From Verrucomicrobiales bacterium (GTDB lineage: Bacteria > Verrucomicrobiota > Verrucomicrobiia > Limisphaerales > UBA9464), in assembly GCA_016793645.1 (NCBI GenBank), contig JAEUHD010000086.1, positions 31,397 through 95,396 on the forward strand: DNA of 64,000 nt, in the 5' to 3' direction. The notes beneath the pieces were generated by a model. That model was not told where the DNA came from, did no database searches, and was given only the letters and a program-made list of their open reading frames with translations. Every line of letters begins with the position of its first letter. Position 1 is the first letter of the stretch. The position numbers and the translations under genes are program-made. Shown here in pieces: positions 1,528-41,684 of this stretch.

Positions 1528-3672
1528 ATGCGGAAACGGGGAACCAAGGATGTCCGGGAATCCGAGCGCCGGTATTTCAACCGGGAGCTCAGCTGGCTTG
1601 AATTCAACCGGCGCGTCCTGGATGAAGCCTTCGACACCACAAACCCGCTGCTCGAGCGGGTGAAGTTCTTCTGCATCTTCAACTCCAATCTCGACGAGTT
1701 CTTTGAAGTCCGCGTCGCCGGACTCATGGAGGCGGGCCAGGAAGGGGTTCGCGAGCGCTCCGTGGATGGCTTGGATGCATCCCAAACGCTCGAGGCCATT
1801 CGCGAGCGGGTTCGCGCCCTCGTCGACGAGGCCTATCGCTGCTGGCGTGAAATCCTGGTGCCCGAACTCTCGCAGCACGGCATTGACTTCCTCAGTCCCG
1901 AACGTTTGCCGGCCGAAACGAGCGGGTGGCTCGCCCAGTACTATCGCGAAAAGGTGTCCCCGGTCCTGACCCCCCTCGCCCTCGATCCTGCCCATCCCTT
2001 TCCCCAGCTCCTCAACAAATCCCTGAACCTGATTGTCCGGTTGCACGGGCAGTTCCGGGGCCAATTGCGACGATCACTCGCCGTGGTCCAGGTTCCCCGG
2101 GGCCTGCCCCGGCTCGTGCCCCTGCCCTCGGCCGACGGACGCCGGACCTACGTATTCCTCCACCAATTGATCAGCCATCACCTCGGCGATCTGTTTCCCG
2201 GCATGACGCTGGAGGGGTGCTGGAGTTTTAGGGTCACGAGGAACAGCGAACTCTACATCGACGAGGAGGAGGTTCCCAACCTCCTGCGCGCGGTCGAACA
2301 TGAACTGGACAACCGGAAGCGGGGTTCCGCCGTGCGTCTTGAGGTGTCCGCCGATTGTCCCGCCGATGTCACCTCGGACCTGCTGGAGAACATCGGGCTC
2401 ACCGGCAACGAATTGTACGTCATCGACGGCCCCGTGAATCCCACGCGCCTCATGGCCATTGTTGAGGGGGACCATTCGCCGGAACTGCGCGACCCGCCGT
2501 TCCACGCCCCGGTCTCCCCATTGCTCCGGGGTCGCGAGGACCTGTTTTCCGCGATTCGGGAGCGGGACATTCTTCTGCACCACCCCTACGACAACTTCGG
2601 TTCCGTGGTCCAGTTTCTGGAGCAGGCGGCCGAGGATCCGAAGGTGCTGGCGATCAAACAAACCCTGTACCGCACCGGCGGAGACCCGCGGATCGTGGGT
2701 GCCCTGATGAACGCGGTGAAGAACGGCAAGCAGGTGACCGCGGTGGTCGAATTGAAGGCCCGCTTCGATGAGGCCAACAACATCCGATGGTCCCGGGCAT
2801 TGGAGGAGGCCGGGGTTCACGTCATCTACGGCGTGGTCGGATACAAGATCCATTGCAAGGTCGCCCTTGTCGTCCGGGCGGACGACGACGGCATCCGGCG
2901 CTACGTCCACCTGGGGACCGGAAACTACAACCCCAGCACGGCACGACTCTACACGGACGTCGGATTGCTCACCTGCAGCCCCGCCTTCGGAGAGGACGCC
3001 ACCAACCTGTTCAACCTGCTTACCGGGATCTGCCGGCCTCAGGAAACCCAGCGGCTGCTGATCGCCCCGTTCGGAATGCTGCACCGGATCATCGCCCTGA
3101 TCGACCGTGAGACGGACAATGCGCGCCGCGGCCTGCCGGCAAGGATTGTTGCCAAGATGAACGCCCTCGTGGAGGCGCCGATCATCGAAGCCCTGTACCG
3201 CGCCTCCGCGGCGGGCGTGGAGATCGACCTAATCGTGCGCGGAGTGTGCTGCCTCCGTCCCGGAGTCCCGGGATTGAGCGCCCACATCCGCGTCCGAAGC
3301 ATCGTGGACCGGTTCCTGGAGCACGCCCGGATCTGGTCCTTTGACAACGCGCATCGTCCCGAGGTCTTCGTGGGAAGCGCGGACTGGATGCCGCGCAATC
3401 TGCATCGGCGCATTGAGGTGGTCTTTCCCATTGAGGACGGCCGGCTCCGGGAACACCTCACCTCGGAGATCCTTGCCACCGAACTGGCCGACAACACCAA
3501 GGCCCGATTGTTGATGCGGGACGGCTCCTATCGGAAATCGGAACCCTCCCAAGGATCACCCCGCCGTCGCGCCCAGGCCGAATTCATCGAACGCGCGATC
3601 CGATCCAAGCGGTTCACACCCTCCGGACGCCCTCCCTCCCCGGAAAAACTTCGGGTTCGCCGCCGACCGTAG
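1528..3672 (+). CDS. ppk: polyphosphate kinase 1
   Basis: 714 aa. The N-terminal RYFNRELSWLEFNRRVLDEA signature is present, and PPK1-like length and conservation run throughout (LYRTGGDPRIVGALMNAVKNGKQVTAVVELKARFDE, HLGTGNYN). Confidence 0.93.
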   Translation: MRKRGTKDVRESERRYFNRELSWLEFNRRVLDEAFDTTNPLLERVKFFCIFNSNLDEFFEVRVAGLMEAGQEGVRERSVDGLDASQTLEAIRERVRALVDEAYRCWREILVPELSQHGIDFLSPERLPAETSGWLAQYYREKVSPVLTPLALDPAHPFPQLLNKSLNLIVRLHGQFRGQLRRSLAVVQVPRGLPRLVPLPSADGRRTYVFLHQLISHHLGDLFPGMTLEGCWSFRVTRNSELYIDEEEVPNLLRAVEHELDNRKRGSAVRLEVSADCPADVTSDLLENIGLTGNELYVIDGPVNPTRLMAIVEGDHSPELRDPPFHAPVSPLLRGREDLFSAIRERDILLHHPYDNFGSVVQFLEQAAEDPKVLAIKQTLYRTGGDPRIVGALMNAVKNGKQVTAVVELKARFDEANNIRWSRALEEAGVHVIYGVVGYKIHCKVALVVRADDDGIRRYVHLGTGNYNPSTARLYTDVGLLTCSPAFGEDATNLFNLLTGICRPQETQRLLIAPFGMLHRIIALIDRETDNARRGLPARIVAKMNALVEAPIIEALYRASAAGVEIDLIVRGVCCLRPGVPGLSAHIRVRSIVDRFLEHARIWSFDNAHRPEVFVGSADWMPRNLHRRIEVVFPIEDGRLREHLTSEILATELADNTKARLLMRDGSYRKSEPSQGSPRRRAQAEFIERAIRSKRFTPSGRPPSPEKLRVRRRP

Positions 3673-3683
3673 CGAAGGTCCGG

Positions 3684-5183
3684 TCAGCGGGCCAGGAGGG
3701 TCACGGCCGCCACAATGACCCCGAACCCGATGAGGTCCAGCAGGGCCCCATGCCGGATCATTTGAAGGATCGGCACACACCCCGACCCGTAGACGATCGC
3801 GTTGGGCCCCGTGGACACCGGCAGCAGGAATCCCATCGACGATCCCATGCAGGCGCCCAGCGCCGGTTGGAGCGGATCCAATCCGGCCGCCTGCGCGACC
3901 GCGATGGCCACCGGCACCACCATCGTCGCCGACGCCGTATTGGAGGTGGCTTCACTGGTCAGGATGGCGACTCCGGTGAACAGCACCGTCATCCCGAACA
4001 CCGTCTTCGCGTGAAACACTCCGGCCAGGCCGTCGCCAATCCATCGCGCCAATCCCGTTGAAAACATCTGCTCCCCCAGGGCCATCCCGCCGGCAAACAG
4101 GAAGATGGTTCCCCAGTCGATCTTCACCGCGTCGGACCAGGTCAATGTGAATTCGCCCCGCCACCAACTCAGCGGCCAGGCGAACAGGGCCACGGCCGCT
4201 GTCAGGGCGACCACGCTCTCCGGCATCCTCGCATTCATCCATCGCACGGATGGGGCGTCAGGCCCCTGGAGCAACGTCAGGACTCCCGGAAGAAGCCAAA
4301 GGACCACGGCGGACGTGAATACGACGAGCACGTTGCGCTGGGCCGGCGTCCATGCCCCCAGACGTCTCCCCTCCGCCTCAAGCCAGGCACCGCCACCGCG
4401 CAGGGATTCGGGAGCCACGGGGCATCGAACGTAGAAGTTGATCACCAACAGGAACCCCAGCAGCAACGCGACGGGCAGTCCCATTCGCATCCAATCGAAA
4501 AAGGACACTTTCACCCCGAGCATCTTCTCGATCATTCCGATGCCAATCAGGTTCGGTGGCGTCCCCACGGGAGTCGCCATTCCGCCCACGGAGGCACCAA
4601 AGGCCGTCAGCAGCATGATCCCGGTGGCCATGGGAAGCCGGGTAAACGGAATCGGGATTCCCAGCCGGGCCGATTCCCGGCGGGCAACCTCGGTCGAGAT
4701 GGCAATTCCGATCGGCAGCATCATGGCCGTGGTGGCGGCATTGGAGACCCACATGGAAAGGCAGGTCGTAATCGCGCCAAATGCCGCATACAGGCGGAAG
4801 GGGTGATCCCCCACGGCGGGAAGCCCCAGAATGAGGAAGGCCAGGCGCCGATTGAGGCCATGCTTCATCATGGCCTCGACCAGGATGAAGCTCCCAAGAA
4901 AAAGGAAGATGATCGGATCGGAAAACGTCCGGAACACCTCCCGGGCCGGGCCGATTCCCGCCATGACACACAGGGTGGGACCGAGCAGCGCCGTGACCGC
5001 CATGGGAAGGGCTTCGGTGACCCAAAGCACCACGGCCATGCCCAGGATTGCCAGCAGATGGGACGCCGACGCCGACAGACCTCGAATCGGAATGAACCAG
5101 AGCGTGACCAGGACCGCCGGGGCAAGAAACAGGCCGACCCGGCGACGCCAGCGTTCGAACGCCTCCTCGGCCTCCGACAGCAT
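3684..5183 (-). CDS. DASS/SLC13-family anion:sodium symporter (citrate/sulfate-transporter-like)
   Basis: Polytopic membrane protein with many TM helices and repeated SNTA/SNAATT hairpin-type motifs (TSEATSNTASATM, WVSNAATTAMMLPI). I placed the start at MLSEAEEAF (5183). The longer ORF start (5423) would overlap the divergent FKBP gene and adds an Arg-rich non-membrane leader. Confidence 0.75.
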   Translation of the reverse strand: MLSEAEEAFERWRRRVGLFLAPAVLVTLWFIPIRGLSASASHLLAILGMAVVLWVTEALPMAVTALLGPTLCVMAGIGPAREVFRTFSDPIIFLFLGSFILVEAMMKHGLNRRLAFLILGLPAVGDHPFRLYAAFGAITTCLSMWVSNAATTAMMLPIGIAISTEVARRESARLGIPIPFTRLPMATGIMLLTAFGASVGGMATPVGTPPNLIGIGMIEKMLGVKVSFFDWMRMGLPVALLLGFLLVINFYVRCPVAPESLRGGGAWLEAEGRRLGAWTPAQRNVLVVFTSAVVLWLLPGVLTLLQGPDAPSVRWMNARMPESVVALTAAVALFAWPLSWWRGEFTLTWSDAVKIDWGTIFLFAGGMALGEQMFSTGLARWIGDGLAGVFHAKTVFGMTVLFTGVAILTSEATSNTASATMVVPVAIAVAQAAGLDPLQPALGACMGSSMGFLLPVSTGPNAIVYGSGCVPILQMIRHGALLDLIGFGVIVAAVTLLAR

Positions 5184-6446: not shown

Positions 6447-7187
6447 ATGCACGCCCACGCCATCGACACCTACCTGCTCCGGATCCGGGAACAAATGGAC
6501 CGGATTGCCACCCGCCAACGCCCCGCCATAGAGACGGCGGGCACCTGGATGGCCGACGCACTGACCGCGGGTCGGTTCGTTTTCGTATTTGGCACCGGAC
6601 ATTCCCATCTGCTTGCCGAGGAACCCTTCTATCGCGCCGGCGGGCTTGTCGGTGTCGTCCCGATCCTGGACGACGATCTCATGCTGCACCGCAGCGCAAG
6701 TCGATCCACCGAATTGGAACGGGAATCCGGACGCGCGGGCCCGCTCCTGACCCGCTACGGGGTGTCCCGGGGCGACGTCCTGCTGGTCGCCTCCAATGGC
6801 GGCCGAAACGCCGTGCCCATTGAAATGGCTTTGGAAGCCCGGCAGCGGGGCGCGCGCGCCATTGCGCTGACCAACCTGGTCCAGACCCGCGCCTGGCCGT
6901 CCCGTCATTCGTCCGGAAAACACCTCGCCGATGTCGCCGACCTGGTGGTCGACAATGAGGGTGTGGACGGGGACGCCGCGGTCGAAATTCCGGGAATTCC
7001 CACCCGCGTCGGACCGACCTCCACGGTGACGGGCGCCCTCATCGTGAATCTGATGGCCCTGCACTGCATCGAAGTCATCCGGTCCCGGGGCGGCGCGCCC
7101 GATGTGTTTGTCAGCAGCAATGCCGGGGGCGAATCCCACAATGCCTCCCGCATCGCCGCCATGCGCCTGATCAACCCGCATCTCTGA
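6447..7187 (+). CDS. SIS (sugar-isomerase/phosphosugar-binding) domain protein, UPF0309-like
   Basis: 246 aa from MHAHAIDTYL. FVFGTGHSHLLAEE and LLVASNGGRNAVPIE resemble the SIS nucleotide-fold pattern. The upstream 100 codons of the track ORF overlap the FKBP gene and its terminator and are Arg/Pro/Ser junk. Confidence 0.7.
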   Translation: MHAHAIDTYLLRIREQMDRIATRQRPAIETAGTWMADALTAGRFVFVFGTGHSHLLAEEPFYRAGGLVGVVPILDDDLMLHRSASRSTELERESGRAGPLLTRYGVSRGDVLLVASNGGRNAVPIEMALEARQRGARAIALTNLVQTRAWPSRHSSGKHLADVADLVVDNEGVDGDAAVEIPGIPTRVGPTSTVTGALIVNLMALHCIEVIRSRGGAPDVFVSSNAGGESHNASRIAAMRLINPHL

Positions 7188-7265
7188 AACGATTGCGGGT
7201 CGGAACGATCGAAGTCTCGCCAGCGATGAATTTCCGCGCCTCAATGCCGTCGGCGCCATTTCGAT

Positions 7266-8627
7266 ATGCCGAGTATTGCCGGGTCCGATTCAGCAGGGTC
7301 CCTCCGCTCCGAGGGAGACGTCAACGCAACCCCCCGTCGAACGGAGTGGACTGATTCCGCACTCGGACCGGAGACGCGGGCCCGACTGGCCGAGGACGCC
7401 ACCCATTTCCTCCACCAATCCCTGTCGACCCCCTGCCTGAACGTTCTCAGGAAGGCCGAAGGGGCCTCGATTGAGGATCTGGAGGGGCGCCGCTACCTCG
7501 ATTTCCACGGAAACAATGTTCATCAGGTTGGATTCGGACATCCCCGGGTGATCGAGGCGATCAAGCGACAACTCGACGACCTGAGCTTCTGCACCCGCAG
7601 GTACACCTGCGAACCGGCCATTGAACTGGCCCGCCGCCTCGGCGAAGTCGCCCCCGGCGACCTGCGCCGCGTCCTCTTCGCCCCCGGAGGCACGAGCGCC
7701 ATCGGCATGGCCCTCAAACTGGCGCGGGTGGCCACCGGGCGCTTCAAGTTCGTCTCAATGTGGGACTCCTTCCACGGAGCGTCCCTGGACGCGATTTCGA
7801 TCGGAGGCGAGGCCGTGTTCCGCAAGGGCATCGGCCCGCTGCTTCCCGGATGCGAGCACGTGCCGCCCCCCGAGCCGCACGGATGTCCCTTCCGGTGCGG
7901 AACGACCTGCTCCCTTGCCTGCGCGGACTACGTGGAATACGTCCTCGAGAAGGAGGGTGATGTGGCGGCGGTCATCGGGGAAACGGTGCGATGCACCCCG
8001 TTCATCCCCCCGCCCGACTACTGGCGCCGGATCCGCGCCGCCTGTGACCGTCACGGGACGCTCCTGATCCTGGACGAGATCCCGATTGGACTCGGTCGCA
8101 CCGGGGCCATGTTTGCCTGCGAACACTACGGGGTCGTTCCCGACATGCTCGTGCTCGGCAAGGGACTCGGAGGCGGCATCTTCCCGCTGGCCGCGCTCCT
8201 CGCGAGGGAATCGCTCAACGTCGCCACGCACACGGCGCTGGGCCATTACACGCATGAGAAGAATCCCGTCGCCTGCGCCGCGGGTCTCGCCACGTTGGAC
8301 GTGATCCGTGACGAGCACTTGGTCGAAAATGCGGCACGGCTTGGAGAGGTGGCCCTCGCGCGGATGCGGGACATGAAATCGCGGCATCCGCTGATCGGGG
8401 ACATCCGCGGAAAGGGCTTGTTGATGGGCATCGCTTTGAACCATCCGGACGGCAGCCCGGCGATCGACGAAGCCGAACGGGTCATGTACGCCGCCCTGTC
8501 GCGGGGCCTCAACTTCAAGGTGACCATGGGCAACATCCTCACGTTGACCCCGGCCCTGATCCTGACGGAGGAGGAACTCCTGCGGGCGCTGAACATCCTC
8601 GAACAATCCATCGCCGAACTCGAATGA
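7266..8627 (+). CDS. class-III (ornithine/GABA-type) PLP-dependent aminotransferase-fold enzyme
   Basis: 453 aa. YLDFHGNNVHQVGFGHPRV, FAPGGTSAIGMALKLAR, LILDEIPIGLGRTGAMFA and MLVLGKGLGGG (Schiff-base Lys context) are typical of the fold. Substrate is not assignable. Confidence 0.85.
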   Translation: MPSIAGSDSAGSLRSEGDVNATPRRTEWTDSALGPETRARLAEDATHFLHQSLSTPCLNVLRKAEGASIEDLEGRRYLDFHGNNVHQVGFGHPRVIEAIKRQLDDLSFCTRRYTCEPAIELARRLGEVAPGDLRRVLFAPGGTSAIGMALKLARVATGRFKFVSMWDSFHGASLDAISIGGEAVFRKGIGPLLPGCEHVPPPEPHGCPFRCGTTCSLACADYVEYVLEKEGDVAAVIGETVRCTPFIPPPDYWRRIRAACDRHGTLLILDEIPIGLGRTGAMFACEHYGVVPDMLVLGKGLGGGIFPLAALLARESLNVATHTALGHYTHEKNPVACAAGLATLDVIRDEHLVENAARLGEVALARMRDMKSRHPLIGDIRGKGLLMGIALNHPDGSPAIDEAERVMYAALSRGLNFKVTMGNILTLTPALILTEEELLRALNILEQSIAELE

Positions 8628-9922
8628 CCACGTCCCCAAGCGAATTTGGTTTTCGGAACCGCGCCCTCGCCGTTTTCCCGGCCGGATCCAACGGGGAGTT
8701 CGGGTTCCCGGCGGAACTGGTGCCGGTCCTGGAGCGGGGCCTCGGTTCCCGGGTCTGGGATACGGAGGGCCGCGAGTATCTGGACTTCACCATGGCCTGG
8801 GGATCCGCCCTGGTGGGACACGCCCACCCGAAGGTGGTCGAGGCCGCGAGCCGCCAGGCGAAGGACGGGATGAACTTCGCTGCCGTCAACCGGCGCTCGG
8901 TGGAGCTGGCGGAACGCCTGCAGGGAATCTCGCCGTTTCTCGAGAATCTCCGCTTCGTCGCCTCCGGCACCGAGGCGACGATGATGTGTCTTCGCGTTGC
9001 GCGCGCGGCGACCGGAAAGTCCAAGGTCCTCAAGTTCGAGGGCGCTTACCACGGACAACATCCGGAAGGCATCACCAGCATGATCCATGGCCGGCCTTCA
9101 GCCCTGCCCAAGTCGGATCCTTCGGGTGCAGGCGCGCCCTGGGTGGAACGTGACGTCCTGGTGGCTCCCTTCAACGACCTCGCCACCACGGCCTCCACCC
9201 TTCGCGATCATGCCGGCGACCTGGCCGGAGTGATCGTCGAACCCCTCCATCGCTGCATCGCGCCCGACCCAGAATTCCTCCGGGGTCTCCGGGAACTCAC
9301 CCGCACGCTGGGCATCCCGCTGATCTTTGACGAGGTGGTCACCGGATTCCGCCTCGCGCTCGGCGGTGCCCGGGAATACTACGGAGTTGCCCCCGACCTG
9401 GTGGCCTATGGCAAGGCGCTCGGGGGCGGATTCCCCCTCGGGATGTACGGCGGCAATGCCGCCCTGATGGAAGTGGTGGACGAACACCGCCTGCCCGGCC
9501 CGCGCTACGCATGGTCCGCCTCCACCACCGGCGGCAATCCCGTGTCCTGCGCCGCATCCCTGGCAGCCCTGGATGTGTTTTCCGAACCCGGGTTCCACCC
9601 ACGGATGCATGAGCTGGGTCGTCTGCTTCGGCGCGGACTCGCCGAGGCGCTCGCGGATTCCGGCACCCCGGGACAGGTGCTCGGCGACGGTCCGCTCGGA
9701 CAGGTGGCCTTTTCCGAAAAGCCCGTGGTCGACCAGGCCTCCTGGCTGGCGAGCGACCGGAAGCGCTCCCGCGCCCTGATGCTGGAACTGGTCCGCCAGG
9801 GGGTTTTCCTCAATCCCATGGGGACAAAATTGTACCTCTCGGCCGCGCACACTCCCGAGGACATCGGGGAATTCTGCCGACGCTTCCGGAGTGCCCTTGA
9901 CGTGACGTCCGCCACCTCATGA
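8624..9922 (+). CDS. class-III aminotransferase-fold enzyme, glutamate-1-semialdehyde aminomutase (HemL)-like
   Basis: 432 aa with an ATGA overlap onto the previous gene. FVASGTEATMMCLRVARAATG, IFDEVVTGFRLALGGA and LVAYGKALGGGFPLG match the HemL-family pattern. Confidence 0.85.
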   Translation: MTTSPSEFGFRNRALAVFPAGSNGEFGFPAELVPVLERGLGSRVWDTEGREYLDFTMAWGSALVGHAHPKVVEAASRQAKDGMNFAAVNRRSVELAERLQGISPFLENLRFVASGTEATMMCLRVARAATGKSKVLKFEGAYHGQHPEGITSMIHGRPSALPKSDPSGAGAPWVERDVLVAPFNDLATTASTLRDHAGDLAGVIVEPLHRCIAPDPEFLRGLRELTRTLGIPLIFDEVVTGFRLALGGAREYYGVAPDLVAYGKALGGGFPLGMYGGNAALMEVVDEHRLPGPRYAWSASTTGGNPVSCAASLAALDVFSEPGFHPRMHELGRLLRRGLAEALADSGTPGQVLGDGPLGQVAFSEKPVVDQASWLASDRKRSRALMLELVRQGVFLNPMGTKLYLSAAHTPEDIGEFCRRFRSALDVTSATS

Positions 9923-11415
9923 ACCCGGCTCGAAGGCTGATCTTCGGATCGCTGGCCGCCATGGCGGTCCTGGTGGGACTCCTATTCTGGCGGCCCGGAA
10001 ACTCGCCAGCCGCCCTTCCACGTGAGCCCCTGCTGGTCTATTGCGCCGCCGGCCTCAAGGGACCTGTGGAGGAGGCCTCGCGCGAGTACGAGCGACGAAC
10101 CGGGGTCCCGGTGCAACTTCAGTTCGGGGGATCCGGACTCCTGCTCAACAATCTCAAGGTCGCGCGACGGGGGGACCTGTTCCTGGCAGCAGACAACTCC
10201 TATCTCGACGCCGGTCAATCCAACGGGGTGATCCGGGAAATCATTCCGCTCGCCCAGATGACCGCGGTCATCGCAGTTCCGAAGGCAAACCCCAAGAAAT
10301 TCACCTCGCTCGCCGATCTCGAAGCTCCGGGAGTGGAAATCGCCTCCGCGAATCCCGATGCCACCGCCATCGGCCGACTCACCCAGCGGGCGCTGGAGGC
10401 TTCGGGCCATTGGAGGAATCTCCAACCCCGAATCAAGGTGCTGAAACCCACGGTCAATGACGTGGCAAATGACGTGAAGTTGGGGACCGTGGACGCCGGG
10501 ATCGTCTGGGATGCCACCGTCAACCAGTACCCGGAACTGGCCGCAGTTTCGGTTCCCGAACTCCAGGGCGCCGTGGCGGAGGTCGGCGTTGGAGTTCTGA
10601 GTTTCTCGGAACAACCCGCAGCGGCCCTGCGCTTCGCCCGCTTTCTGGGTTCCCGGGAGTTCGGCCTCCCCGTATTTCAGAAGAGTGGGTTTGTCGCTGC
10701 GACGGGGGACTCCTGGACGGAACAACCCCAGGTCGTCCTCTACAGTGGCGGCGTCAACCGGGTGGCGATTGAGGAGACGCTGCGCGAGTTCGAAGCACGG
10801 GAAGGCGTCACGGTGAATCGCGTATACAATGGATGTGGCATTCTGACCGCCCAGATCCGGTCCGGACAGCGCCCCGACGCCTACTTCGCCTGCGACGTCT
10901 CGTTCATGACCAACGTTGCCTCCCATTTCTTGAAGCCCGTCGAATTGTCCCAGACCCGGATGGTCATTCTGACCCGACAGGGAAATCCAAAATCGCTGCG
11001 AACCCTCGCCGACCTGACGCAGCCGGGTCTTGCACTGGGCATTGCCAATCCACAACAGAGTGCGCTGGGAGCGCTAACCGTGCGCCTTCTGCGGGCGGAG
11101 GGACTTCTGGATCAGGTCATGCCCAACGTCCGCGTGCAGACTCCGACAGCGGACTTGCTGGTGAACCAGCTCCGGACCGGGGCCCTCGACGCCGCCCTCG
11201 TCTATGCCGCGAACACCAGCCAGGTGAAGGGCATCCTGGAGATCATCGAACTGCCCCAGGAATCGGCGCTGGCAACGCAGCCTTACGCCATCGGACGGGA
11301 TTCCCAACATCCGCGGCTGATGGAACGGCTCCTCCAACACCTCCGATCCCCCGCCTCGCGCGCCCGTTTTGAACAGACCGGATTTCGGTGGCGGGACGCT
11401 TCCCCGGAACGATGA
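9919..11415 (+). CDS. modA: membrane-anchored fusion of two ModA/TupA-like oxyanion periplasmic binding domains
   Basis: 498 aa with an N-terminal TM/signal anchor. Two consecutive ~230-aa units each show the ModA pattern: LLVYCAAGLKGPVEE...FGGSGLLLNNLK...DLFLAAD, and VVLYSGGVNRVAIEE...YNGCGILTAQIRSG...DAYFACD. ATGA overlaps occur at both ends. Confidence 0.75.
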   Translation: MNPARRLIFGSLAAMAVLVGLLFWRPGNSPAALPREPLLVYCAAGLKGPVEEASREYERRTGVPVQLQFGGSGLLLNNLKVARRGDLFLAADNSYLDAGQSNGVIREIIPLAQMTAVIAVPKANPKKFTSLADLEAPGVEIASANPDATAIGRLTQRALEASGHWRNLQPRIKVLKPTVNDVANDVKLGTVDAGIVWDATVNQYPELAAVSVPELQGAVAEVGVGVLSFSEQPAAALRFARFLGSREFGLPVFQKSGFVAATGDSWTEQPQVVLYSGGVNRVAIEETLREFEAREGVTVNRVYNGCGILTAQIRSGQRPDAYFACDVSFMTNVASHFLKPVELSQTRMVILTRQGNPKSLRTLADLTQPGLALGIANPQQSALGALTVRLLRAEGLLDQVMPNVRVQTPTADLLVNQLRTGALDAALVYAANTSQVKGILEIIELPQESALATQPYAIGRDSQHPRLMERLLQHLRSPASRARFEQTGFRWRDASPER

Positions 11416-12260
11416 ACGGAAGCCCCATTCCCACCAACCCCGGGCCTGAACCCCGGAAACGGATCCTGCACCCGGACCGCGTCTTCCTGCTGTCGTTCTC
11501 GATTCTGGGGGGAAGCTACCTGTTGCTGCTGCTGTCCACGCTGGTCGCCGACCTTGCCTACACCTCCCCGGGGCATTTGTGGCGGGCGCTTCAAAGTCCG
11601 GAAATCCGGTATGCCATCCGCCTGAGCCTCCTGAGCTGCACCCTGACGGCGCTGCTGTCGTTGTGGGTCGCGGTGCCCATTGGGTATCTCATGGCCCGAA
11701 TCCGATTTCCCGGGAAGGGCCTCGCCGATGTGCTGCTCGACATTCCCATCGTGCTCCCGCCCCTGGTGATCGGGCTCAGTCTGCTCATCCTGTTCCAAAC
11801 GCCGCCCGGGCGCGCCGTCGAGCGATGGATCCCGGTCACCTACGCAATTCCCAGCGTGATCCTGGCCCAGTTCATGGTTGCCTGCGCGTTCGCCGTCCGA
11901 ACCCTCCGGGCGACCTTCGAGCAGATCAGTCCGCGACACGAACAGGTCGCACTCACCCTCGGCTGTACCCGCAGCCAGGCGTTCTGGATGGTCGTTCTCC
12001 CGGAGGCGCGCCGCGGAGTCCTGACGGCGGGAACCCTCGCCTGGGCCCGCGCGCTCGGCGAATTTGGTCCCATCCTGATCTTCTCGGGCGCCACGCGGAT
12101 GAAGACCGAAGTGCTGTCCACGACGGTCTTCCTCGAACTGAGTGTCGGAAATCTTGAGGCCGCGGTCGCCGTCTCGCTGCTCATGGTGGCCGCGGCCGCC
12201 GTGGTGCTCCTCCTCATCCGGACCCAGGGACTCGAAAGCACCCTCGGTCGCCCGCTGTGA
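11412..12260 (+). CDS. modB: ABC transporter permease, ModB/CysT type
   Basis: Six predicted TM segments and an EAA-like loop (LGCTRSQAFWMVVLPEARRGVLTAG). The start is the ATG overlapping the upstream TGA. Confidence 0.8.
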   Translation: MNGSPIPTNPGPEPRKRILHPDRVFLLSFSILGGSYLLLLLSTLVADLAYTSPGHLWRALQSPEIRYAIRLSLLSCTLTALLSLWVAVPIGYLMARIRFPGKGLADVLLDIPIVLPPLVIGLSLLILFQTPPGRAVERWIPVTYAIPSVILAQFMVACAFAVRTLRATFEQISPRHEQVALTLGCTRSQAFWMVVLPEARRGVLTAGTLAWARALGEFGPILIFSGATRMKTEVLSTTVFLELSVGNLEAAVAVSLLMVAAAAVVLLLIRTQGLESTLGRPL

Positions 12261-12261: not shown

Positions 12262-12918
12262 ATGATCGCCCTCGAACAGGTCACCGTGGGCATCGGCGGA
12301 TTCGAACTCCGCGACGTTTCCTTCACGATTCCGGACGGGGGCTACGGCGTCCTGATGGGACGCACCGGATCCGGCAAGACGACCCTGTTGGAGGCCATCT
12401 GCGGACTTCGCCCCATCCGCTCGGGCATCGTCCGCCTCCAGGGCCGCGACGTGACCCGCGAGTCCCCGGCGAAACGCGGCGTGGGATTCGTTCCCCAGGA
12501 GGGTGCCTTGTTCGGACACCTCACCGTGCGCGAGCATTTGGAGTTCGCCCTGGTGGTCCGCCACTGGAGCCCCGCTGCCATTCGCACCCGGGTGGAGGAG
12601 CTATCCGCCTGGCTCGGCCTCAACCCACTGCTGCACCGGAAGCCCGCGGGACTTAGCGGCGGGGAAACCCAAAGGGTGGCCCTGGGCAGGGCACTCTCCT
12701 TCCAACCGCAGGTGCTGTGCCTCGACGAACCGCTGAGCGCGCTGGATGACGAGAGCCGGGCTGAAATCTGTTCGGTACTGGAAACCATCCACCAACGAAC
12801 CCGCGTCACGGTCCTGCACATCACCCATAATCGCACCGAAGCCGAACGGCTGGCGGGCACCCTCCTTCGGATCCATGACGGAACCCTACAACTCCAGGTA
12901 CCGCCCGCGTCCCGCTGA
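12262..12918 (+). CDS. modC: ABC transporter ATP-binding protein (short ModC-like, no TOBE/Mop domain)
   Basis: Walker A GRTGSGKTT, signature LSGGETQRV and Walker B LCLDEPLSALD. At 218 aa it lacks the C-terminal regulatory domain of E. coli-type ModC. Confidence 0.85.
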   Translation: MIALEQVTVGIGGFELRDVSFTIPDGGYGVLMGRTGSGKTTLLEAICGLRPIRSGIVRLQGRDVTRESPAKRGVGFVPQEGALFGHLTVREHLEFALVVRHWSPAAIRTRVEELSAWLGLNPLLHRKPAGLSGGETQRVALGRALSFQPQVLCLDEPLSALDDESRAEICSVLETIHQRTRVTVLHITHNRTEAERLAGTLLRIHDGTLQLQVPPASR

Positions 12919-13666
12919 AGCACTGCCGGAACTCGACCCCGTCGAGCGGGAAATCCGCTCATGGCAGCTCGATGTGGACGGCTTCGGGGAACTCGGACAA
13001 CGACGCGTCCAGGCCACAACCGTCCTGATCTCCCGCGTCGGCGGCCTGGGTGGCATGGTGGCCCTCGAACTCGCCGCCGCTGGGATCGGCGGAATGGTTC
13101 TCGCCCATGGAGGATCTCTTCGAGCGAACGACCTCAACCGACAGGTCCTCATGTCCCATGCCGGGATCGGAAAGCCCCGCATCGACCTTGCCGCGGAACG
13201 GCTGCTGGCGCTGAATCCCCGCCTGAGGATCCAGGCCGTCGCCTCCAACGTCACGGAGTCCAACGTCCGGGAACTGGTGGAGGCTGCGGACGTGATCGTG
13301 GACTGCGCTCCGTTGTTCGAGGAACGGTACCTCCTGAATCGCGAGGCGGTCGCACAGCGCAAGCCCATGGTCGAATGCGCCGTGTACGGACAGGAATTTC
13401 ACCTGACCACGATTCTACCCGGGGAAACCCCCTGTTTGCGGTGCCTGTATCCGGAGCCTTCCACCACGTGGGTCCGAAGGTTCCCGGTTCTCGGCGCGGT
13501 TTCCGGCGCGGCGGGATGCCTCGCCGCAATGGAGGTGATCAAGCTGATCTCCGGATGTGGAGAAATCCTCCGGGGCCGGCTGCTGGCCATGGATCTCCGA
13601 ACCCATCAGGTGACAAACGTGCGAATCCGGAGGCTTCCCCGTTGTCTCGATTGCGGCGATGTCTAG
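12875..13666 (+). CDS. ThiF/MoeB/HesA-family E1-like adenylyltransferase
   Basis: Gly-rich nucleotide loop VLISRVGGLGGMVALELAAAGIG, then NDLNRQVL, and two CxxC pairs (CLRC, CLDC). The first in-frame ATG overlaps the ModC gene by 44 nt, so the start is uncertain. Confidence 0.75.
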   Translation: MTEPYNSRYRPRPAEALPELDPVEREIRSWQLDVDGFGELGQRRVQATTVLISRVGGLGGMVALELAAAGIGGMVLAHGGSLRANDLNRQVLMSHAGIGKPRIDLAAERLLALNPRLRIQAVASNVTESNVRELVEAADVIVDCAPLFEERYLLNREAVAQRKPMVECAVYGQEFHLTTILPGETPCLRCLYPEPSTTWVRRFPVLGAVSGAAGCLAAMEVIKLISGCGEILRGRLLAMDLRTHQVTNVRIRRLPRCLDCGDV

Positions 13667-13685
13667 GCTTTGGGAACGCGACGAC

Positions 13686-14837
13686 ATGAGGCGGATTCTT
13701 CCCATGATCCTGGCGGCTTCGGCCCTGATGAACCTCCCGGTTCAGGCCTGCCGCTATTCGATTCGGGACACCGGCTTCGTGGATTTCGATGCCGCCGTCT
13801 ATCGGCTGCGACTGTCTGACGAGGGTATTCCTCCCGCCACCACGGCGCTCTTCCTTCAATCCGCCGCAGGAGTGCTTCTGGATTCGAACATCGAGTTCGA
13901 CCGGACGGAATCCACCACGGACAGTACGGGCCTCCACCTTCGGGACGCCTCGGGCCGGGACCTTCTGATTTCCAGCCCGGAGAAACTCCCCGGCGACGCC
14001 CCGGGAATCCAACGGATGCTGGAGTCCATCGCCAACTCCCCCGCCCGAAGTCGGGTCCAAACCGAGTCCCTCCGCTCCTTTGCGGTGGTTCTCCTGGTGG
14101 ACGGCACCAATTCCGCCGCCAACGCACGCGCGCTCGAAGCCATTAAAACCGCGATCGCGTCCGTGGAGCGACTGATGCCCTCAATGCCGAAGCCGGTCTC
14201 GGTGCCGCCCCAACTCGTGCAGATCTCCGCATCCGAATTGCCCGCGGAGTCCGTGCTCCTCTGGGGGCTCGGCCTTGTTCCGGAGCCCGTCGCAGATCCC
14301 CGGCTGGCCCTCCTTTATGGCCGGGGCCGGCGACTTGGCGAACCGCTGGAGGGTCCGACGATCACGCGAACCGCAGTCCAGGAACGGCTGGTGCTCATCG
14401 GACAGGACTGCGAATGCGACCTGGATCGGTCCTGGCTCAAGGGGCCGGTGATTCCTGGACGCTGGGATCGCAGTCTCCAGGAGGGCGCCGCCCAATCGCT
14501 GGGCTTTGACCCGGAGAGCCCGATGGTGCGCTCCGAAGTGAGCCGAATCGTGCTCCGCGGGGAGGGTGATCGGAAACACCCCAGTCGTCCGTCGAGTGCC
14601 CTGGCCCTCGGTTACTCTGAGGAGTCGGTGGACGATGCCGCCGGGACGTCGTCCCCGACCGGAGCCGTTGATGATTCCTCAACGGACGCCAGCAATGCAC
14701 CGCCTTCGATCCCAGGCCCCACAACGCCACAGAATCCACAGACCGGCATGACGTGGTGGATTTTGGGAACTGGGATGGCCGCGGCGATGCTCGCCGGAAT
14801 TGGAGTGGCCCTCCGCGGACTTCGACGCCACGCATGA
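13686..14837 (+). CDS. hypothetical exported protein: lipobox-like Cys at the N-terminus, C-terminal TM anchor, no recognisable domain
   Basis: The sequence starts MRRILPMILAASALMNLPVQAC. It contains a CECD motif, an S/T/P/D-rich linker and a C-terminal helix WWILGTGMAAAMLAGIGVAL followed by RGLRR. The stop overlaps the next start (ATGA). Confidence 0.6.
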   Translation: MRRILPMILAASALMNLPVQACRYSIRDTGFVDFDAAVYRLRLSDEGIPPATTALFLQSAAGVLLDSNIEFDRTESTTDSTGLHLRDASGRDLLISSPEKLPGDAPGIQRMLESIANSPARSRVQTESLRSFAVVLLVDGTNSAANARALEAIKTAIASVERLMPSMPKPVSVPPQLVQISASELPAESVLLWGLGLVPEPVADPRLALLYGRGRRLGEPLEGPTITRTAVQERLVLIGQDCECDLDRSWLKGPVIPGRWDRSLQEGAAQSLGFDPESPMVRSEVSRIVLRGEGDRKHPSRPSSALALGYSEESVDDAAGTSSPTGAVDDSSTDASNAPPSIPGPTTPQNPQTGMTWWILGTGMAAAMLAGIGVALRGLRRHA

Positions 14838-15985
14838 ATGTACTTCAGCTCATCGGGCGCGAACTGGGTCACCGCCGTCTGCAGGCGGGTTTGACGCTGC
14901 TCGGCCTGACCATTGCCGTGGCGCTGCTGACCGCTGTGCACCTCGCCACGGGTGCGGCGGAACGCGAAACCCGCCGGGTGATGCGCGACCTCGGATTCAA
15001 CCTCCGGATTGTCTCCCGGGACACGGATCCGGCCTTCTTCTGGCGGGAAGGCCACTCGGATCGAACCCTTCCGGAATCCGCCGTCCGGACACTGGCGGCG
15101 CAGCATGGAGTTTTCATCACCTTCAACCACCTCACCCCGACCCTGGAGCGACGGCTCGTCATCCAGGGACGGGACGCGCTGATCACCGGCCTCGGCGCGT
15201 CGGTCATTGGGCCCGGAGAGAAGAAGCAACCCATGGGATTCGTGATTCCCAACGGCAGCCTCTATCTCGGCGCCACGCTCGCCCGCGTCCTCGGCGCGGA
15301 ACGGGGCGGGACCGTCACGCTGTCCAATCGGACCTTTCGGGTGGAACGGGTCCTGACCGAAAGCGGCACCGAGGACGATATCCGAATTTTCACCTCCCTG
15401 TCGGACGCCCAGTCCCTGCTCCAACTGCCGGGACAAATCAGCGAGATCAAGGCCGTGGATTGCCTCTGCCTGACACCCGATCAGGACCCCTTGGGACAGA
15501 TCCGCAAGGCCCTCGCTTCGGCTCTTCCGGAGGCCACGGTGTTCCAGGTTCGCCACCTCGCCGAAGCCCGGGCGCGCCAGCGGAGGATGTCCGAACACTT
15601 CACGCAGTTCGCCGTCCCGTTGACCCTGGGTGCCGCGGCTCTGTGGACCGGACTCCTGATGATGCTCAATGTGCGGGAACGCCGCGCGGAGATCGGATTG
15701 TGGCGCGCCCTCGGATGGGGCTCACCTCCGATTGCCGCCCTGTTCCTGGGCCGGGCGGTTCTTCTGGGAGCCGCAGCAGCCATCCTCGGCTGGGCTCTGG
15801 GAACCGGAGCCGCGCTGCATTGGGGACCCGGGCTCTTCCCGGTGACGTCCGGGGCATTGGCACCGGACCTGGGCTTCCTTCGACTCGCCCTCGTGGCCAC
15901 CCCCGCCCTCGCCGCAGCAGCCTCATTCCTACCCGCCATGATGGCGGTCGCGCAGGATCCAGCGGACACTCTTCGCGCAGACTGA
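14834..15985 (+). CDS. FtsX-domain ABC permease of MacB/LolC (type VII) architecture
   Basis: 383 aa. TM1 at ~17-38, a ~220-aa extracytoplasmic domain, then three C-terminal TM helices with the FtsX-type ERRAEIGLWRALGW loop. Confidence 0.8.
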   Translation: MNVLQLIGRELGHRRLQAGLTLLGLTIAVALLTAVHLATGAAERETRRVMRDLGFNLRIVSRDTDPAFFWREGHSDRTLPESAVRTLAAQHGVFITFNHLTPTLERRLVIQGRDALITGLGASVIGPGEKKQPMGFVIPNGSLYLGATLARVLGAERGGTVTLSNRTFRVERVLTESGTEDDIRIFTSLSDAQSLLQLPGQISEIKAVDCLCLTPDQDPLGQIRKALASALPEATVFQVRHLAEARARQRRMSEHFTQFAVPLTLGAAALWTGLLMMLNVRERRAEIGLWRALGWGSPPIAALFLGRAVLLGAAAAILGWALGTGAALHWGPGLFPVTSGALAPDLGFLRLALVATPALAAAASFLPAMMAVAQDPADTLRAD

Positions 15986-15990: not shown

Positions 15991-16671
15991 ATGCTTTCCT
16001 GCCGACAACTCAGCCGGGACTACCGGGGGCCGCAGGGACCCGTGCGTGTTCTCCGGGAACTGTCCTTCGAGGCCGCCCGCGGCGACATGGTGGTCATCCG
16101 TGGCCCGAGCGGCGCCGGCAAGACCACCCTTCTCCTGACCCTCGGAGGTATGCTCCGGCCCAATTCAGGATCCGTGATGCTCGACGGACAGGATCTCTAT
16201 TCCCTTTCCGCTGCGGATCGGGCACGCCTTCGAAACCGCCGGATCGGGTTTGTCTTCCAACTGTTTCACCTCGTCCCCTACCTGAGCGTCCACGAGAACA
16301 TCCTCGCGGGATTGCCCGGTTCAGTGGATGGCACCCTCCGGAGGCGTGCGTCAGGGTTGCTGGAGGAATTGGGCCTCGCCTCGCGGGAAAATCATCGTCC
16401 CGCCGCGCTCAGTGCCGGTGAACGGCAACGAACCGCGCTGGCCAGGGCCCTGCTCAAGGAACCCAGTGTGATGCTCGCCGACGAACCTGCCGGAAACCTG
16501 GATCCCGCCAATGGCGCCGTCGTCTTCCAACACTTGGAGGACTATCGCCGCAAGGGCGGGACCGTGATCGTGGTCACCCATGGCACGGAGTCGATTCCGG
16601 CGACAGCCCGCAGGCTTCGACTCGAGAACGGCGTCCTTCTCGAAGAGTCCGTTTCCGCACAACGTCCATGA
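15991..16671 (+). CDS. ABC transporter ATP-binding protein (LolD/MacB/FtsE type)
   Basis: Walker A GPSGAGKTT, Q-loop FVFQ, signature LSAGERQRTALARAL and Walker B MLADEPAGNLD. This is the last 226 codons of the 623-aa track ORF. Confidence 0.9.
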   Translation: MLSCRQLSRDYRGPQGPVRVLRELSFEAARGDMVVIRGPSGAGKTTLLLTLGGMLRPNSGSVMLDGQDLYSLSAADRARLRNRRIGFVFQLFHLVPYLSVHENILAGLPGSVDGTLRRRASGLLEELGLASRENHRPAALSAGERQRTALARALLKEPSVMLADEPAGNLDPANGAVVFQHLEDYRRKGGTVIVVTHGTESIPATARRLRLENGVLLEESVSAQRP

Positions 16672-18116
16672 GATCCCGCACTGCATCCCTGCTCCGCCGC
16701 GTGACCCTCGGGTGGGTGATCACCGTGGCGGTCGTCCGCGCATCGGCTTCGGATTGGCCGACCTACCGGGCGGACAATTCCCGGAGCGGGGTCAGCCCGG
16801 ATGACGTCCCTGGCGTGGTCTCCGAAGCCTGGGTCTGGCGCTCCCGCCAACCGCCCCGTCCCGCGTGGCAGGGCGAAGCCAAATGGGACGGGTGGAACAA
16901 GGTCTTTGACCTGAAGGCCCGTCAAACCTTCGACCGCGCCTTTCACGCCGTGGTGTCGGGAGACCGGGTCTATTTCGGGTCCTCGGCCGACGACAAGATC
17001 TACTGCCTGGACGCCGTGACCGGCAGGGAGGTGTGGACCGTCTTCACCGAAGGCCCCGTCCGCCTCGCCCCTACAATCGCCAATGGCCGCGTGTACGTAG
17101 GCTCCGACGACGGCCACGTGTACTGCCTCGATGCCCAGGACGGTCATTCGCTCTGGAACGTGCGGGCCGCACCGTCCGACCGGCGCATCCCGGGCAACGG
17201 CCGCCTCATTTCCGCCTGGCCCGTGCGTACGTCGGTCGTGGTCGCCGATGGCATCGCCTACACCACCGCAGGGATGTTTCCATCGGAGGGAGTCCATCTC
17301 CTCGCACTGGACGCCGCCACCGGCGCCGAGCGGTGGCGTCAAATCCAGACCGATCTTCCGGCACAGGGATACCTCCTCGCGTCCCCCACCCGGCTTTATA
17401 TTCCTGCGGGACGCGATAATCCCGTCGTGTGCGACCGGGCCACCGGAAAACGGATCCGGGTCGTGGACGGAAACGGCGGCACCTATGCCCTGCTCGCGGG
17501 TGGGGATTCCCTGGTGTTCGGCCCTGGAAAAACCGGGCAACTCAACGCGCTCGACGAAGGACCTGCGGACCAACTCGCCACCTTCCAGGGAAACCAAATG
17601 ATCGTCGCCGGTGATCGGTCTTACCTACACTCGGACACGGAACTCAGCGCATTGGACCGGGGACGTTACCTGCAGTTGGCCCGCGAGCGAAAGGCCATCA
17701 GCCGGAGGCAGGGGGAAATCCAAAAGGCGCTGCGGAAACTCGACGCCGCCGGGGGCGGTGACGCCGAGAAGGCAAAACTCAAATCGGAACTCGCGGAATT
17801 GGGTCCGAAACTGGATGCCCGCACCCAGTCCATGGAGGAATGCCTTGCGTGGAAGATTCCCTGCCGCTGGCCGCTGACACTGGTGCTGGCGGGAACGACG
17901 CTGGCCGCCGGCGGCCAGAATGAAGTGGCCGGATTCCAGGCGTCGGATGGAAAGGTCCTGTGGACCCGTCCGGTCACTGGGGCCGCCTATGGAATCGCCG
18001 CAGCGGGAGGTGCCCTTTTCGTCAGCACCGACAGCGGCTCAATCCACTGTTTCCGGGGCTCCAGCCAGCGCGCCTCCCTCAACGCCCCCGCTCCCGCGGA
18101 ATCCCGCACCCCATGA
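16668..18116 (+). CDS. exported PQQ-like (BamB-type) beta-propeller repeat protein with a coiled-coil insertion
   Basis: Signal peptide, WPTYRADNSRSG and repeated GRVYVGSDDGHVYCLDAQDG-type blades. A ~60-aa charged helical insert is present (RERKAISRRQGEIQKALRKLD...KLKSELAELG). Confidence 0.75.
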   Translation: MRSRTASLLRRVTLGWVITVAVVRASASDWPTYRADNSRSGVSPDDVPGVVSEAWVWRSRQPPRPAWQGEAKWDGWNKVFDLKARQTFDRAFHAVVSGDRVYFGSSADDKIYCLDAVTGREVWTVFTEGPVRLAPTIANGRVYVGSDDGHVYCLDAQDGHSLWNVRAAPSDRRIPGNGRLISAWPVRTSVVVADGIAYTTAGMFPSEGVHLLALDAATGAERWRQIQTDLPAQGYLLASPTRLYIPAGRDNPVVCDRATGKRIRVVDGNGGTYALLAGGDSLVFGPGKTGQLNALDEGPADQLATFQGNQMIVAGDRSYLHSDTELSALDRGRYLQLARERKAISRRQGEIQKALRKLDAAGGGDAEKAKLKSELAELGPKLDARTQSMEECLAWKIPCRWPLTLVLAGTTLAAGGQNEVAGFQASDGKVLWTRPVTGAAYGIAAAGGALFVSTDSGSIHCFRGSSQRASLNAPAPAESRTP

Positions 18117-27212: not shown

Positions 27213-27417
27213 CCGGCGAGGATGACGACCGGAACGCCCCGTGGCCAGCCGGATGCGTTCGAGGTTCCCGGGAGAATGTCACTCCACGATTCGGTATTCG
27301 CTTGCCTGTCGCCTCCCGCCCGCCTCAACTGACAGGGTTATCCGCACGCGTCCGGTGGCGCACCGGACCCGGGTCCGGAAGCCATCAAGGGACGCGGTGG
27401 GAACGCTTTGGATCAAC

Positions 27418-29457: not shown

Positions 29458-29489
29458 CCCTTCGATCGCCCGCCTTAGCCACCCCTTTC

Positions 29490-38508: not shown

Positions 38509-38584
38509 AAGCCGCTTGCGATGAAAACGGGGCGAACCCAAAGTGCCGCGACCGCTCCGATTCACGGGGCGTCGAGCGCATCCC

Positions 38585-39196: not shown

Positions 39197-39224
39197 ACCC
39201 GTTTACGGCAACCACCTTCCCCCT

Positions 39225-39806: not shown

Positions 39807-39812
39807 GATTCG

Positions 39813-41084: not shown

Positions 41085-41094
41085 GAATTTTCGC

Positions 41095-41589: not shown

Positions 41590-41684
41590 GCGCCAATAAC
41601 TCCACCGAACACCGGATCCATCGGGGTTTCCCTGCTGGAGTCGTTTCCGGAAATTCGTTCCCCGCGAATGGGGACCGGAAGGAT

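Follow-up and report, generated by a model that had tools for sequence, protein, structure and literature searches.

The subject of this analysis is a gene for a tandem oxyanion-binding protein in a 64,000-nucleotide stretch of DNA from a Verrucomicrobiales bacterium (contig JAEUHD010000086.1, positions 31,397 to 95,396), which is called the window below. The gene occupies positions 9919-11415 of the window on the forward strand, and its open reading frame (ORF) encodes 498 amino acids with two domains of family PF13531. This tandem architecture is a real, widely conserved gene and not an artefact of assembly. The genes for an ATP-binding cassette (ABC) permease and an ABC ATPase follow directly downstream, within a larger conserved module. 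Taken as a whole, the data are best, if only tentatively, explained by a tethered two-site receptor of the ModA fold that would serve an importer of the molybdate/tungstate type.

Domain architecture and distribution of the tandem protein

An initial annotation of this DNA had described a product of 498 amino acids with an N-terminal hydrophobic anchor and two complete binding-protein units, and both the profile searches and the structure model bore this out. When residues 30-262 were scanned alone, PF13531 (SBP_bac_11) gave 173.4 bits over profile positions 1-226 of 227, and residues 263-497 gave 144.9 bits over positions 2-227 of 227. Domain 1, supported by PF13531, TIGR01256 and the pocket mapping described below, comprises residues 37-258 (positions 10027-10692) and has a predicted ModA-like pocket. 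Domain 2, supported by PF13531 and the pocket mapping, comprises residues 271-490 (positions 10729-11388) and has a predicted variant pocket. Between them the alignments placed a linker of residues 259-270 (positions 10693-10728) with invariant G263, D264, W266 and P270. The beta-strand and glycine-rich motifs quoted in the annotation were all present, namely LLVYCAAGL (residues 38-46) and FGGSG (69-73) in the first half and VVLYSGGVN (272-280) and YNGCG (303-307) in the second.

In an AlphaFold2 model computed with 35 homologues (predicted local distance difference test, pLDDT, 90.9; predicted template modelling score, pTM, 0.82) a helix of residues 3-23 and a disordered tether of residues 24-33 were followed by two alpha/beta binding-protein units. 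Foldseek searches of the PDB superposed each unit on solved ModA with target-normalised template modelling (TM) scores of 0.77-0.87. For the whole chain the fold analogues were solely tandem binding-domain proteins, the best being SBD1-SBD2 of GlnPQ (6h30), together with EvgS and BvgS. The pTM of the whole chain suggests that the two modelled domains have a defined mutual orientation.

The two halves were 30% identical over 225 residues (E=4e-30), in keeping with the earlier description of them as clearly diverged. Aligned with each other they scored 99 bits, against 63 bits (half 1) and 43 bits (half 2) with any solved ModA. As the halves are closer to each other than to solved ModA, these scores point to one ancient internal duplication followed by divergence.

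Residues 4-26 (positions 9928-9996) form the sole strongly hydrophobic stretch in the hydropathy profile. They are followed by a Pro/Ser-rich tether (residues 27-36), which is variable and only 13% identical among homologues. The N-termini of 35 homologues were built in the same way, with a short basic stretch, 17-22 uncharged residues that mostly end in tryptophan, and a variable tether of 11-37 residues rich in Pro, Ser and Thr. These 35 N-termini contained neither a lipobox cysteine nor a conserved AXA site, and lipoprotein anchoring was ruled out because of the missing lipobox cysteine. Since the uncharged segment occurs without a lipobox and without a conserved AXA site, the helix, which is also seen in the AlphaFold2 model, is probably an uncleaved signal anchor that would tether the protein to the membrane. 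The membrane anchoring proposed in the initial annotation was inferred on the same grounds.

The protein of 498 amino acids has a 100% identical counterpart at NCBI, which comes from a Verrucomicrobiales metagenome-assembled genome (MAG). It was matched from end to end at 56-93% identity by at least 120 other clusters (90% identity) with lengths of about 500 amino acids, drawn from four independent data sources (NCBI, JGI, ENA and Logan). A pattern scan with one genome per species gave at least 588 confirmed matches, which correspond to at least about 300 genes, since two patterns can match one gene. The carriers among the matches listed were mostly Verrucomicrobiota, with Planctomycetota (Pirellulaceae, Isosphaeraceae, Phycisphaerae), Poribacteria and Omnitrophota as other carriers. 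An exhaustive search with half 2 yielded 182 clusters (50% identity) at E<=1e-30. Among the best 150 of these, 95 were at least 450 amino acids long, nearly all with two matched stretches. Short matches in the representative search were mostly fragments beginning inside half 1, and genuine single-domain relatives of half 2 were few (e.g. P0370).

Both halves were conserved to an equal degree. The mean pairwise identity was 60% for half 1 and 64% for half 2, with 37 and 52 invariant columns, respectively, and the linker motif GDxW...P was conserved in an alignment of 78 distinct sequences (at least 50% identity). Because conservation is equal and each half has its own set of invariant pocket residues, neither half is a degenerate remnant, and both are under constraint. 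A frameshift or assembly error that fused two adjacent modA genes, or a single decaying half, is a negligible explanation, as the uninterrupted architecture recurs in the independent assemblies of all four sources, with a conserved linker and equally conserved halves. The survey of other genomes that the initial annotation had proposed thus showed the fusion in hundreds of genomes, and neither of the two objections foreseen there, artefact or remnant, held.

Binding pockets and importer partners

The pockets were mapped by aligning the families of both halves with E. coli ModA, whose molybdate is bound by Ser12, Ser39, Ala125(N), Val152(N) and Tyr170. In the sequence used for E. coli ModA the published ligand numbers fell on the correct residues, and an equivalent set is reported for ModA of A. 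baumannii (PMC11734730). At the ligand positions half 1 has G45, S72, I151, V179 and W197, and D92 was also listed among the pocket residues of domain 1. Half 2 has V279, C306, L383, A411 and Y429, with C325 at the position of ModA Ala58. Side-chain donors at the ModA ligand positions are partly lost, and backbone donors may be retained. In the 78 sequences C42, G45, S72, T178, V179 and W197 were invariant or nearly so in half 1, as were R281, N304, C306, C325, D326, T410, D412, Y429 and N432 in half 2. D198 and D412 were also considered as marks of a pocket for a protonated oxyanion, and no conclusion was drawn from them, the alignment being ambiguous and a conserved SDA/TDA motif of ModA lying nearby.

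The pair C306 (codon 10834-10836) and C325 (codon 10891-10893) was kept in all 78 sequences, in 141 of 150 distant representatives and in the stand-alone protein P0370. Either a disulfide between the two residues would shape or gate the site, or their thiols would contact the ligand.

With the ModA equivalog model TIGR01256 (cutoff 62.5) the whole protein scored 109 bits, half 1 alone 71.4 bits and half 2 alone 42.5 bits. The ModA assignment of the initial annotation thus stood, marginally, for half 1 and failed for half 2. As half 1 just passes this model and half 2 does not, and as the pockets differ, half 1 is a predicted ModA-like oxyanion site and half 2 a predicted distinct subtype. It is plausible that the halves bind different ligands, given the differences at key pocket positions.

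The binding-protein gene shares bases with both of its neighbours: its ATG overlaps with the stop codon of the gene before it (ATGA at 9919-9922), and its TGA with the start codon of a permease gene (ATGA at 11412). This single ModB/WtpB-like ABC permease gene (11412-12260; PF00528) scored 195.5 bits with TIGR01581 (cutoff 210), and the next models were those of sulfate and molybdate permeases. Its nearest solved relatives were ModB of M. acetivorans (3d31, 104 bits) and of A. fulgidus (2onk, 77 bits), both aligned end to end. As there is only one permease gene, the permease is presumably a homodimer. The ATPase gene (ATG at 12262, end at 12918) encodes 218 amino acids with PF00005 as sole domain, and the initial annotation was right that it lacks the TOBE/Mop domain. 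The nearest models were WtpC (194 bits), sulfate (182 bits) and ModC (169 bits), all of them below their own cutoffs.

Neighbours were counted in 39 loci with enough flanking DNA, referred to here as well-flanked. The single permease gene and the short ATPase gene were found directly downstream and on the same strand in all 39. Because both follow the gene in every well-flanked locus, and because both are homologous to ModB/WtpC-type models, the tandem protein is therefore regarded as the receptor of the ModBC-class type I importer encoded directly downstream.

Neighbouring genes and the conserved module

The genes named in this section up to PhnA lie on the forward strand of the window. From PbfA (7266) to a LamG protein (ending at 21067) eleven genes overlap or abut, with ATGA overlaps at 8624, 9919, 11412, 14834, 16668 and 18113. 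PbfA (7266-8627) scored 684 bits with NF049939 (cutoff 525). It is followed by a class-III aminotransferase resembling glutamate-1-semialdehyde aminomutase (8624-9922), which shares its ATGA overlaps at 8624 and 9919 with PbfA and the binding-protein gene, so that the latter is translationally coupled to both. The phosphonoacetate hydrolase PhnA (21092-22345; TIGR02335, 482 bits against a cutoff of 407.6) starts 24 nucleotides past the end of the array. Genes of phosphonate catabolism thus bracket the whole array. PhnY, PhnX and PhnW were not found among the window ORFs that were scanned, which were not all of the ORFs in the window.

Elsewhere PhnW (497 bits), PhnA, PbfA or the class-III aminotransferase stood directly upstream on the same strand at 14 of 65 loci, arranged in at least five ways. 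All phosphonate-linked loci fell inside one large verrucomicrobial clade, across several of its branches. In locus L010 a protein resembling the major facilitator superfamily (MFS), DUF5690 (3564-4997; 422 bits), lies directly before PhnW-PbfA and is a candidate phosphonate permease. In one subclade the place of the phosphonate genes directly upstream is taken by a fusion of ThuA with a 3-keto-disaccharide hydrolase (DUF1080) (L022, L026, L029, L033, L034, L036, L038, L040 and L067).

Downstream of the ATPase a module of genes recurred. A ThiF/MoeB-type E1 and a MacB-type permease were each found in 29 of the 39 well-flanked loci, a LolD-like ATPase in 27, a PQQ_2 beta-propeller protein in 25 and a protein of 392 amino acids in 24, and a homologue of the giant LamG/PQQ_2 protein in 31 of about 80 loci fetched. 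In planctomycetes the order differs, namely an unknown protein, FtsX, ATPase, tandem protein, permease, ATPase and ThiF. As the same gene set is kept in another order, the linkage appears to be functional rather than merely inherited.

The ThiF/MoeB-type E1-like adenylyltransferase of the window (12875-13666; PF00899, 160 bits) overlaps the end of the ATPase gene. It scored 188 and 153 bits with MoeB models, below the cutoffs, and its best solved relatives were E. coli ThiF (117 bits) and MoeB (107 bits). A MoaD/SAMP1-like ORF of 92 amino acids lay between the importer ATPase and ThiF in ten non-verrucomicrobial loci (e.g. L046:12111-12389, L060:12083-12361, L051:11715-11993 and L082:12090-12395, with six further loci). 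It matched PF02597 (ThiS/MoaD), and the archaeal MoaD model gave 40-52.6 bits (cutoff 49.5). Its C-terminus reads SPISGG; the L082 version has 101 amino acids and ends in PIAGG plus nine residues. This ORF was absent from the window. Beside ThiF three loci also carried a half-size membrane protein of the TauE/SafE sulfite-exporter family with 131-138 amino acids (L046:13166-13582, L059:13143-13538, and L068 near 7006-7347).

The protein of 392 amino acids (13659-14837) had no Pfam or NCBIfam match and belongs to no known family. It has a signal peptide and an invariant cysteine at the mature N-terminus, directly after A (CRYS..; CRYS(V/I)RDTGFVD; CRYSVRDTGFVD). The family alignment showed an invariant CxC motif, three invariant cysteines in all and a C-terminal membrane anchor. 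The AlphaFold2 model (pLDDT 78.7) contained two thioredoxin-like folds, which weakly matched the b-b' domains of the protein disulfide isomerases PDI and ERp57 (Foldseek, E of about 4e-4 to 2e-2). There were 317 homologues, and all source names among the 120 listed were 'hypothetical protein'. A profile alignment with a planctomycete protein of the 'ACxxPVFRYALERW' type was collinear over 241 columns (AC, SPxR, GRxR, CxC; E=0.018, probability 2.5%), and homology with this Cys-rich protein is probable.

The next gene encodes a MacB-type ABC permease with a MacB periplasmic core and FtsX domains (14834-15985; PF02687, PF12704), which starts in an ATGA overlap. It is followed by a LolD/MacB-type ABC ATPase (15991-16671; PF00005; TIGR02211 LolD, 198.5 bits, below the cutoff). 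The last two genes of the array encode a secreted, BamB-like PQQ_2 beta-propeller protein (16668-18116; PF13360, 103 bits) and a secreted protein of 984 amino acids with LamG, methyltransferase-like and PQQ_2 parts (ATG at 18113, end at 21067; PF13385, PF13649, PF13360). Both beta-propeller proteins are kept downstream of the module in Verrucomicrobia.

Natural fusions tie the tandem protein to this gene set. In P0248 and P0249 the planctomycete-type Cys-rich periplasmic protein is followed by two membrane helices and the tandem binding protein, and the N-terminal part was 34-42% identical to the free-standing L080 protein (E down to 2e-83). P0255 consists of a LolD-like ATPase (43% identical, E=2e-51) fused to the anchor of a tandem binding protein. 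The membrane topology was consistent in all three fusions.

Several features of the window and of other loci lie apart from the module. Positions 38543-52497 hold a long co-directional run of genes resembling a NADH:quinone oxidoreductase (nuo) operon, with NuoG at 43221-44948 and a tRNA (41688-41758) on the opposite strand in a gap inside the run. A 2-oxoacid:ferredoxin oxidoreductase pair was found at 27241-31103 (POR_N/POR/PFOR_II, then TPP_enzyme_C and 4Fe-4S), and one protein at 60029-61930 (reverse strand) combines planctomycete cytochrome c (PSCyt1) domains with an FGE-sulfatase domain. Two ORFs, at 33136-35154 (reverse strand, 672 amino acids) and at 57283-58350 (forward strand, 355 amino acids), had a GC content at third codon positions like that of coding sequence and no Pfam match at E<=1e-5. 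Locus L002, from a Limisphaerales MAG, carries an Acido-Lenti-1 small RNA at 759-804 (reverse strand; RF01687, 58.5 bits).

Cargo, mechanism and relation to known systems

As for the cargo class, a group-6 oxyanion (molybdate or tungstate) is the most likely one, on a tentative judgement held with somewhat less than even confidence. It is favoured by the homology of all three transporter parts, with the top sequence and fold matches of the tandem protein being all ModA, and by the MoaD-like and MoeB-like genes after the ATPase. A number of observations weigh against it. The identity to solved ModA proteins is only about 20-25%, and half 2 remains below the ModA cutoff. ModA Ser12 was reckoned as glycine in both halves, although the mapping of half 2 lists V279 there, and Ser39 is cysteine in half 2. 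The window showed no moaA, moaC, moaE, moeA or molybdoenzyme gene. As MoaE does not accompany the MoaD-like and ThiF genes, this pair may have another role in sulfur transfer. A riboswitch for the molybdenum cofactor was found neither in the window nor in seven related loci, a result that is uninformative because this riboswitch is confined to some phyla. In addition, the coupled array from PbfA to PhnA and the phosphonate genes upstream at 14 of 65 loci are unexplained by a molybdate function, and neither the MacB-type ABC pair nor the Cys-rich thioredoxin-like partner has a role in known molybdenum uptake.

The phosphonate genes raise the possibility, doubtful as it is, that the importer takes an organophosphonate such as 2-aminoethylphosphonate (AEP), its 1-hydroxy derivative or phosphonoacetate, with one domain for each of two related phosphonates. 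The tetrahedral -PO3 group would then lie in a ModA-type pocket, and the system would be a new transporter type unrelated to PhnD and AepX/PhnS/AepS. PbfA and PhnA both pass their equivalog cutoffs, all genes from PbfA to LamG overlap or abut with PhnA close behind, and the upstream association occurs in several arrangements spread over the clade. Other members of PF13531 bind organophosphates, e.g. PEB3 with phospholactate (3fj7). However, phosphonate genes are missing from the surroundings of 51 of the 65 loci. Only one clade shows the association, although every clade has the same invariant pocket residues. The partners that recur throughout the family (ThiF, the MoaD-like protein, the MacB-type pair and the Cys-rich protein) are not known to take part in phosphonate use. 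The known binding proteins for AEP are members of pfam13343 (PMC8316502), which was not matched, and the PhnS and PhnD families matched far below cutoff or where PF13531 matched much more strongly. Beside PhnW, L010 has an MFS-like gene of its own, and the link could reflect co-regulation, for instance under phosphorus limitation, instead of a shared substrate. The aside of the initial annotation on phosphonates as ligands therefore gained from the gene context, with the coupling to PbfA and the aminotransferase and PhnA closing the array. In a broader version, which is unlikely, the whole set would be a nutrient-capture module of the Planctomycetes-Verrucomicrobia-Chlamydiae (PVC) superphylum, composed of the tethered two-site receptor, the ModB-type importer, the MacB-type machine, the Cys-rich thioredoxin-fold partner and an E1/ubiquitin-like sulfur-carrier pair. 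In the clade to which this window belongs it would be dedicated to aminophosphonate uptake, say with separate sites for AEP and hydroxy-AEP, and would form a fourth type of phosphonate transporter, structurally unrelated to the others.

The cysteines of domain 2 would have a direct part if a thiol-reactive sulfur or selenium species or a metalloid (thiosulfate, sulfite, selenite, thiomolybdate or arsenite) were captured. In that case, which is improbable, they would contact the ligand, the thioredoxin-fold partner would service the thiols, and the MoaD-like and ThiF proteins would take over the product on the cytoplasmic side. In favour of this reading, the pocket positions of C306 and C325 do not vary, the partner has three invariant cysteines and thioredoxin-like folds, its probable distant relative is fused in P0248 and P0249, and the half-size TauE/SafE-family gene occurs in three loci. 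The arsenite sensor AioX uses a pocket cysteine. Weak matches to sulfate/thiosulfate binders were also obtained (1sbp by sequence and fold, and TIGR00971), but the sulfate-binding models reached just 18-27 bits against cutoffs of at least 155, and the domains have the size of ModA (about 230 amino acids), not of Sbp/CysP (about 310). Moreover, conserved cysteine pairs in the periplasm are mostly structural disulfides, the support for the partner fold is weak at the Foldseek E-values given above, and the cluster is without a rhodanese, Cys-synthase or selenium gene. A role of the tandem protein as a sensor or as an accessory to the MacB-type ABC system, comparable to the tandem Venus-flytrap domains of BvgS and EvgS, is very improbable. 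The whole-chain fold does resemble the periplasmic domains of these two proteins, and P0255 joins a LolD-like ATPase to the anchor. Nevertheless, this ATPase fusion rests on a single cluster representative, the protein has no signalling domain, and the importer permease and ATPase genes follow at all 39 loci, often with overlapping codons.

For the tethered two-site ModA-fold receptor of a Mo/W-type importer the following mechanism is proposed. The uncleaved helix and the flexible tether would hold the receptor at the cytoplasmic membrane beside the translocator. Both domains would be functional but non-equivalent and are joined by the short conserved linker. Domain 1 would offer a classic pocket for a tetrahedral oxyanion, with hydrogen bonds only, and domain 2 would have two invariant cysteines in place of ModA Ser39 and Ala58. 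Each domain would close on its own ligand independently, and by analogy with GlnPQ the two would take turns or compete for a single docking site on the permease dimer. Such alternate docking could provide two specificities or two affinity regimes. From the conserved linker and the high pTM, we infer a domain arrangement that is more fixed than that of GlnPQ. The cysteine pair may act as a redox gate whose state could be controlled by the thioredoxin-like partner; the disulfide of A. baumannii ModA is a precedent for such a gate.

Each half has the same fold, size and PF13531 family as bacterial ModA (E. coli 1amf/1wod, X. citri 2h5y, K. pneumoniae 8k8l). Half 1 keeps the equivalents of Ser39 and Val152 and, with W197, a hydrogen-bond donor at the position of Tyr170, and genes for a ModB-like permease and an ABC ATPase come next, although both are below their own equivalog cutoffs. 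In contrast to the single-domain ModA, which is soluble or lipid-anchored, the tandem protein has two domains per chain, and a transmembrane helix takes the place of the cleaved signal peptide or lipid of ModA. GlnPQ of Lactococcus lactis (6h30) likewise holds two tandem binding domains at the membrane within a polypeptide of a type I importer. According to PMC8025302, SBD1 and SBD2 are unlike each other in specificity and affinity and lie at different distances from the membrane. However, the GlnPQ domains are fused to the permease and belong to the amino-acid class, whereas the tandem protein is encoded by a gene of its own, has its own anchor and carries two domains of the oxyanion (ModA) class; no amino-acid-binding family was matched in the Pfam scans. 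In the way it works the tandem protein thus resembles both a ModA-type receptor and a GlnPQ-type tandem, and it is a full member of neither group.

Among the archaeal ModBC and WtpABC systems, the permease is most like ModB of A. fulgidus and M. acetivorans, and the ATPase is closest to WtpC. ModC of A. fulgidus is likewise not known to have a regulatory domain. The binding domains resemble the small bacterial ModA and not WtpA of about 300 amino acids (target-normalised TM-score 0.59-0.65). The 'TupA-like' label of the initial annotation was not upheld, since no TupA or WtpA model matched in the Pfam and NCBIfam scans, and membership in these families was rejected, WtpA structures also fitting less well than bacterial ModA.

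A ModA fold with a non-canonical cysteine pair is found in A. baumannii (8zj6/8zj8), where the pair modulates oxyanion affinity and the disulfide lowers the affinity for molybdate about 170-fold, from 0.177 to 30 nM (PMC11734730). That pair (C141, C189) lies in the other lobe and is unique to the species, whereas the pair described here occupies pocket positions of lobe 1 and is a hallmark of the family.

The AEP importers AepXVW, PhnSTUV and AepSTU are encoded beside phnW, phnA and pbfA, and their binders are single-domain pfam13343 proteins from the same broad family group as iron and sulfate binders (PMC8316502). Here the PhnS, PhnU and PhnT models were far under their cutoffs. Assignment to PhnS/AepX was rejected (PhnS models 17-30 bits against cutoffs of 310-395; pfam13343 unmatched), as was PhnD (PF12974), with 35.3 bits for the whole protein and 26.1 bits for half 1 alone (cutoff 27) beneath a PF13531 match of 312 bits. 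Sbp/CysP (TIGR00971) gave local matches of 18.6-26.6 bits in half 2 only (cutoff 155.5) and was likewise rejected.

The conserved module around the tandem protein, which the initial annotation had not noticed, is previously undescribed. In the searchable literature no description of a tandem or fused ModA was found and nothing relevant on PDB 9wgd or the ThiF/FtsX cluster; a comparative-genomics paper on molybdenum utilisation reports fusions of molybdoenzymes only.

Oxyanion-type binding proteins are, by the textbook, single-domain. The tandem protein extends to the ModA class the tandem-domain principle known from amino-acid importers, and it is a natural system for the question of how two receptors share one translocator. 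Its database name is 'molybdate ABC transporter substrate-binding protein', and several hundred entries so named rest on the marginal match of one half. Domain 2 in particular, a predicted subtype with pocket cysteines, is annotated merely as 'molybdate-binding'. If the Mo/W-type reading holds, the module would be the route of trace-metal acquisition in many freshwater and marine Verrucomicrobia and Planctomycetes; if the cargo were a phosphonate, it would be an unrecognised route in the aquatic phosphorus cycle.

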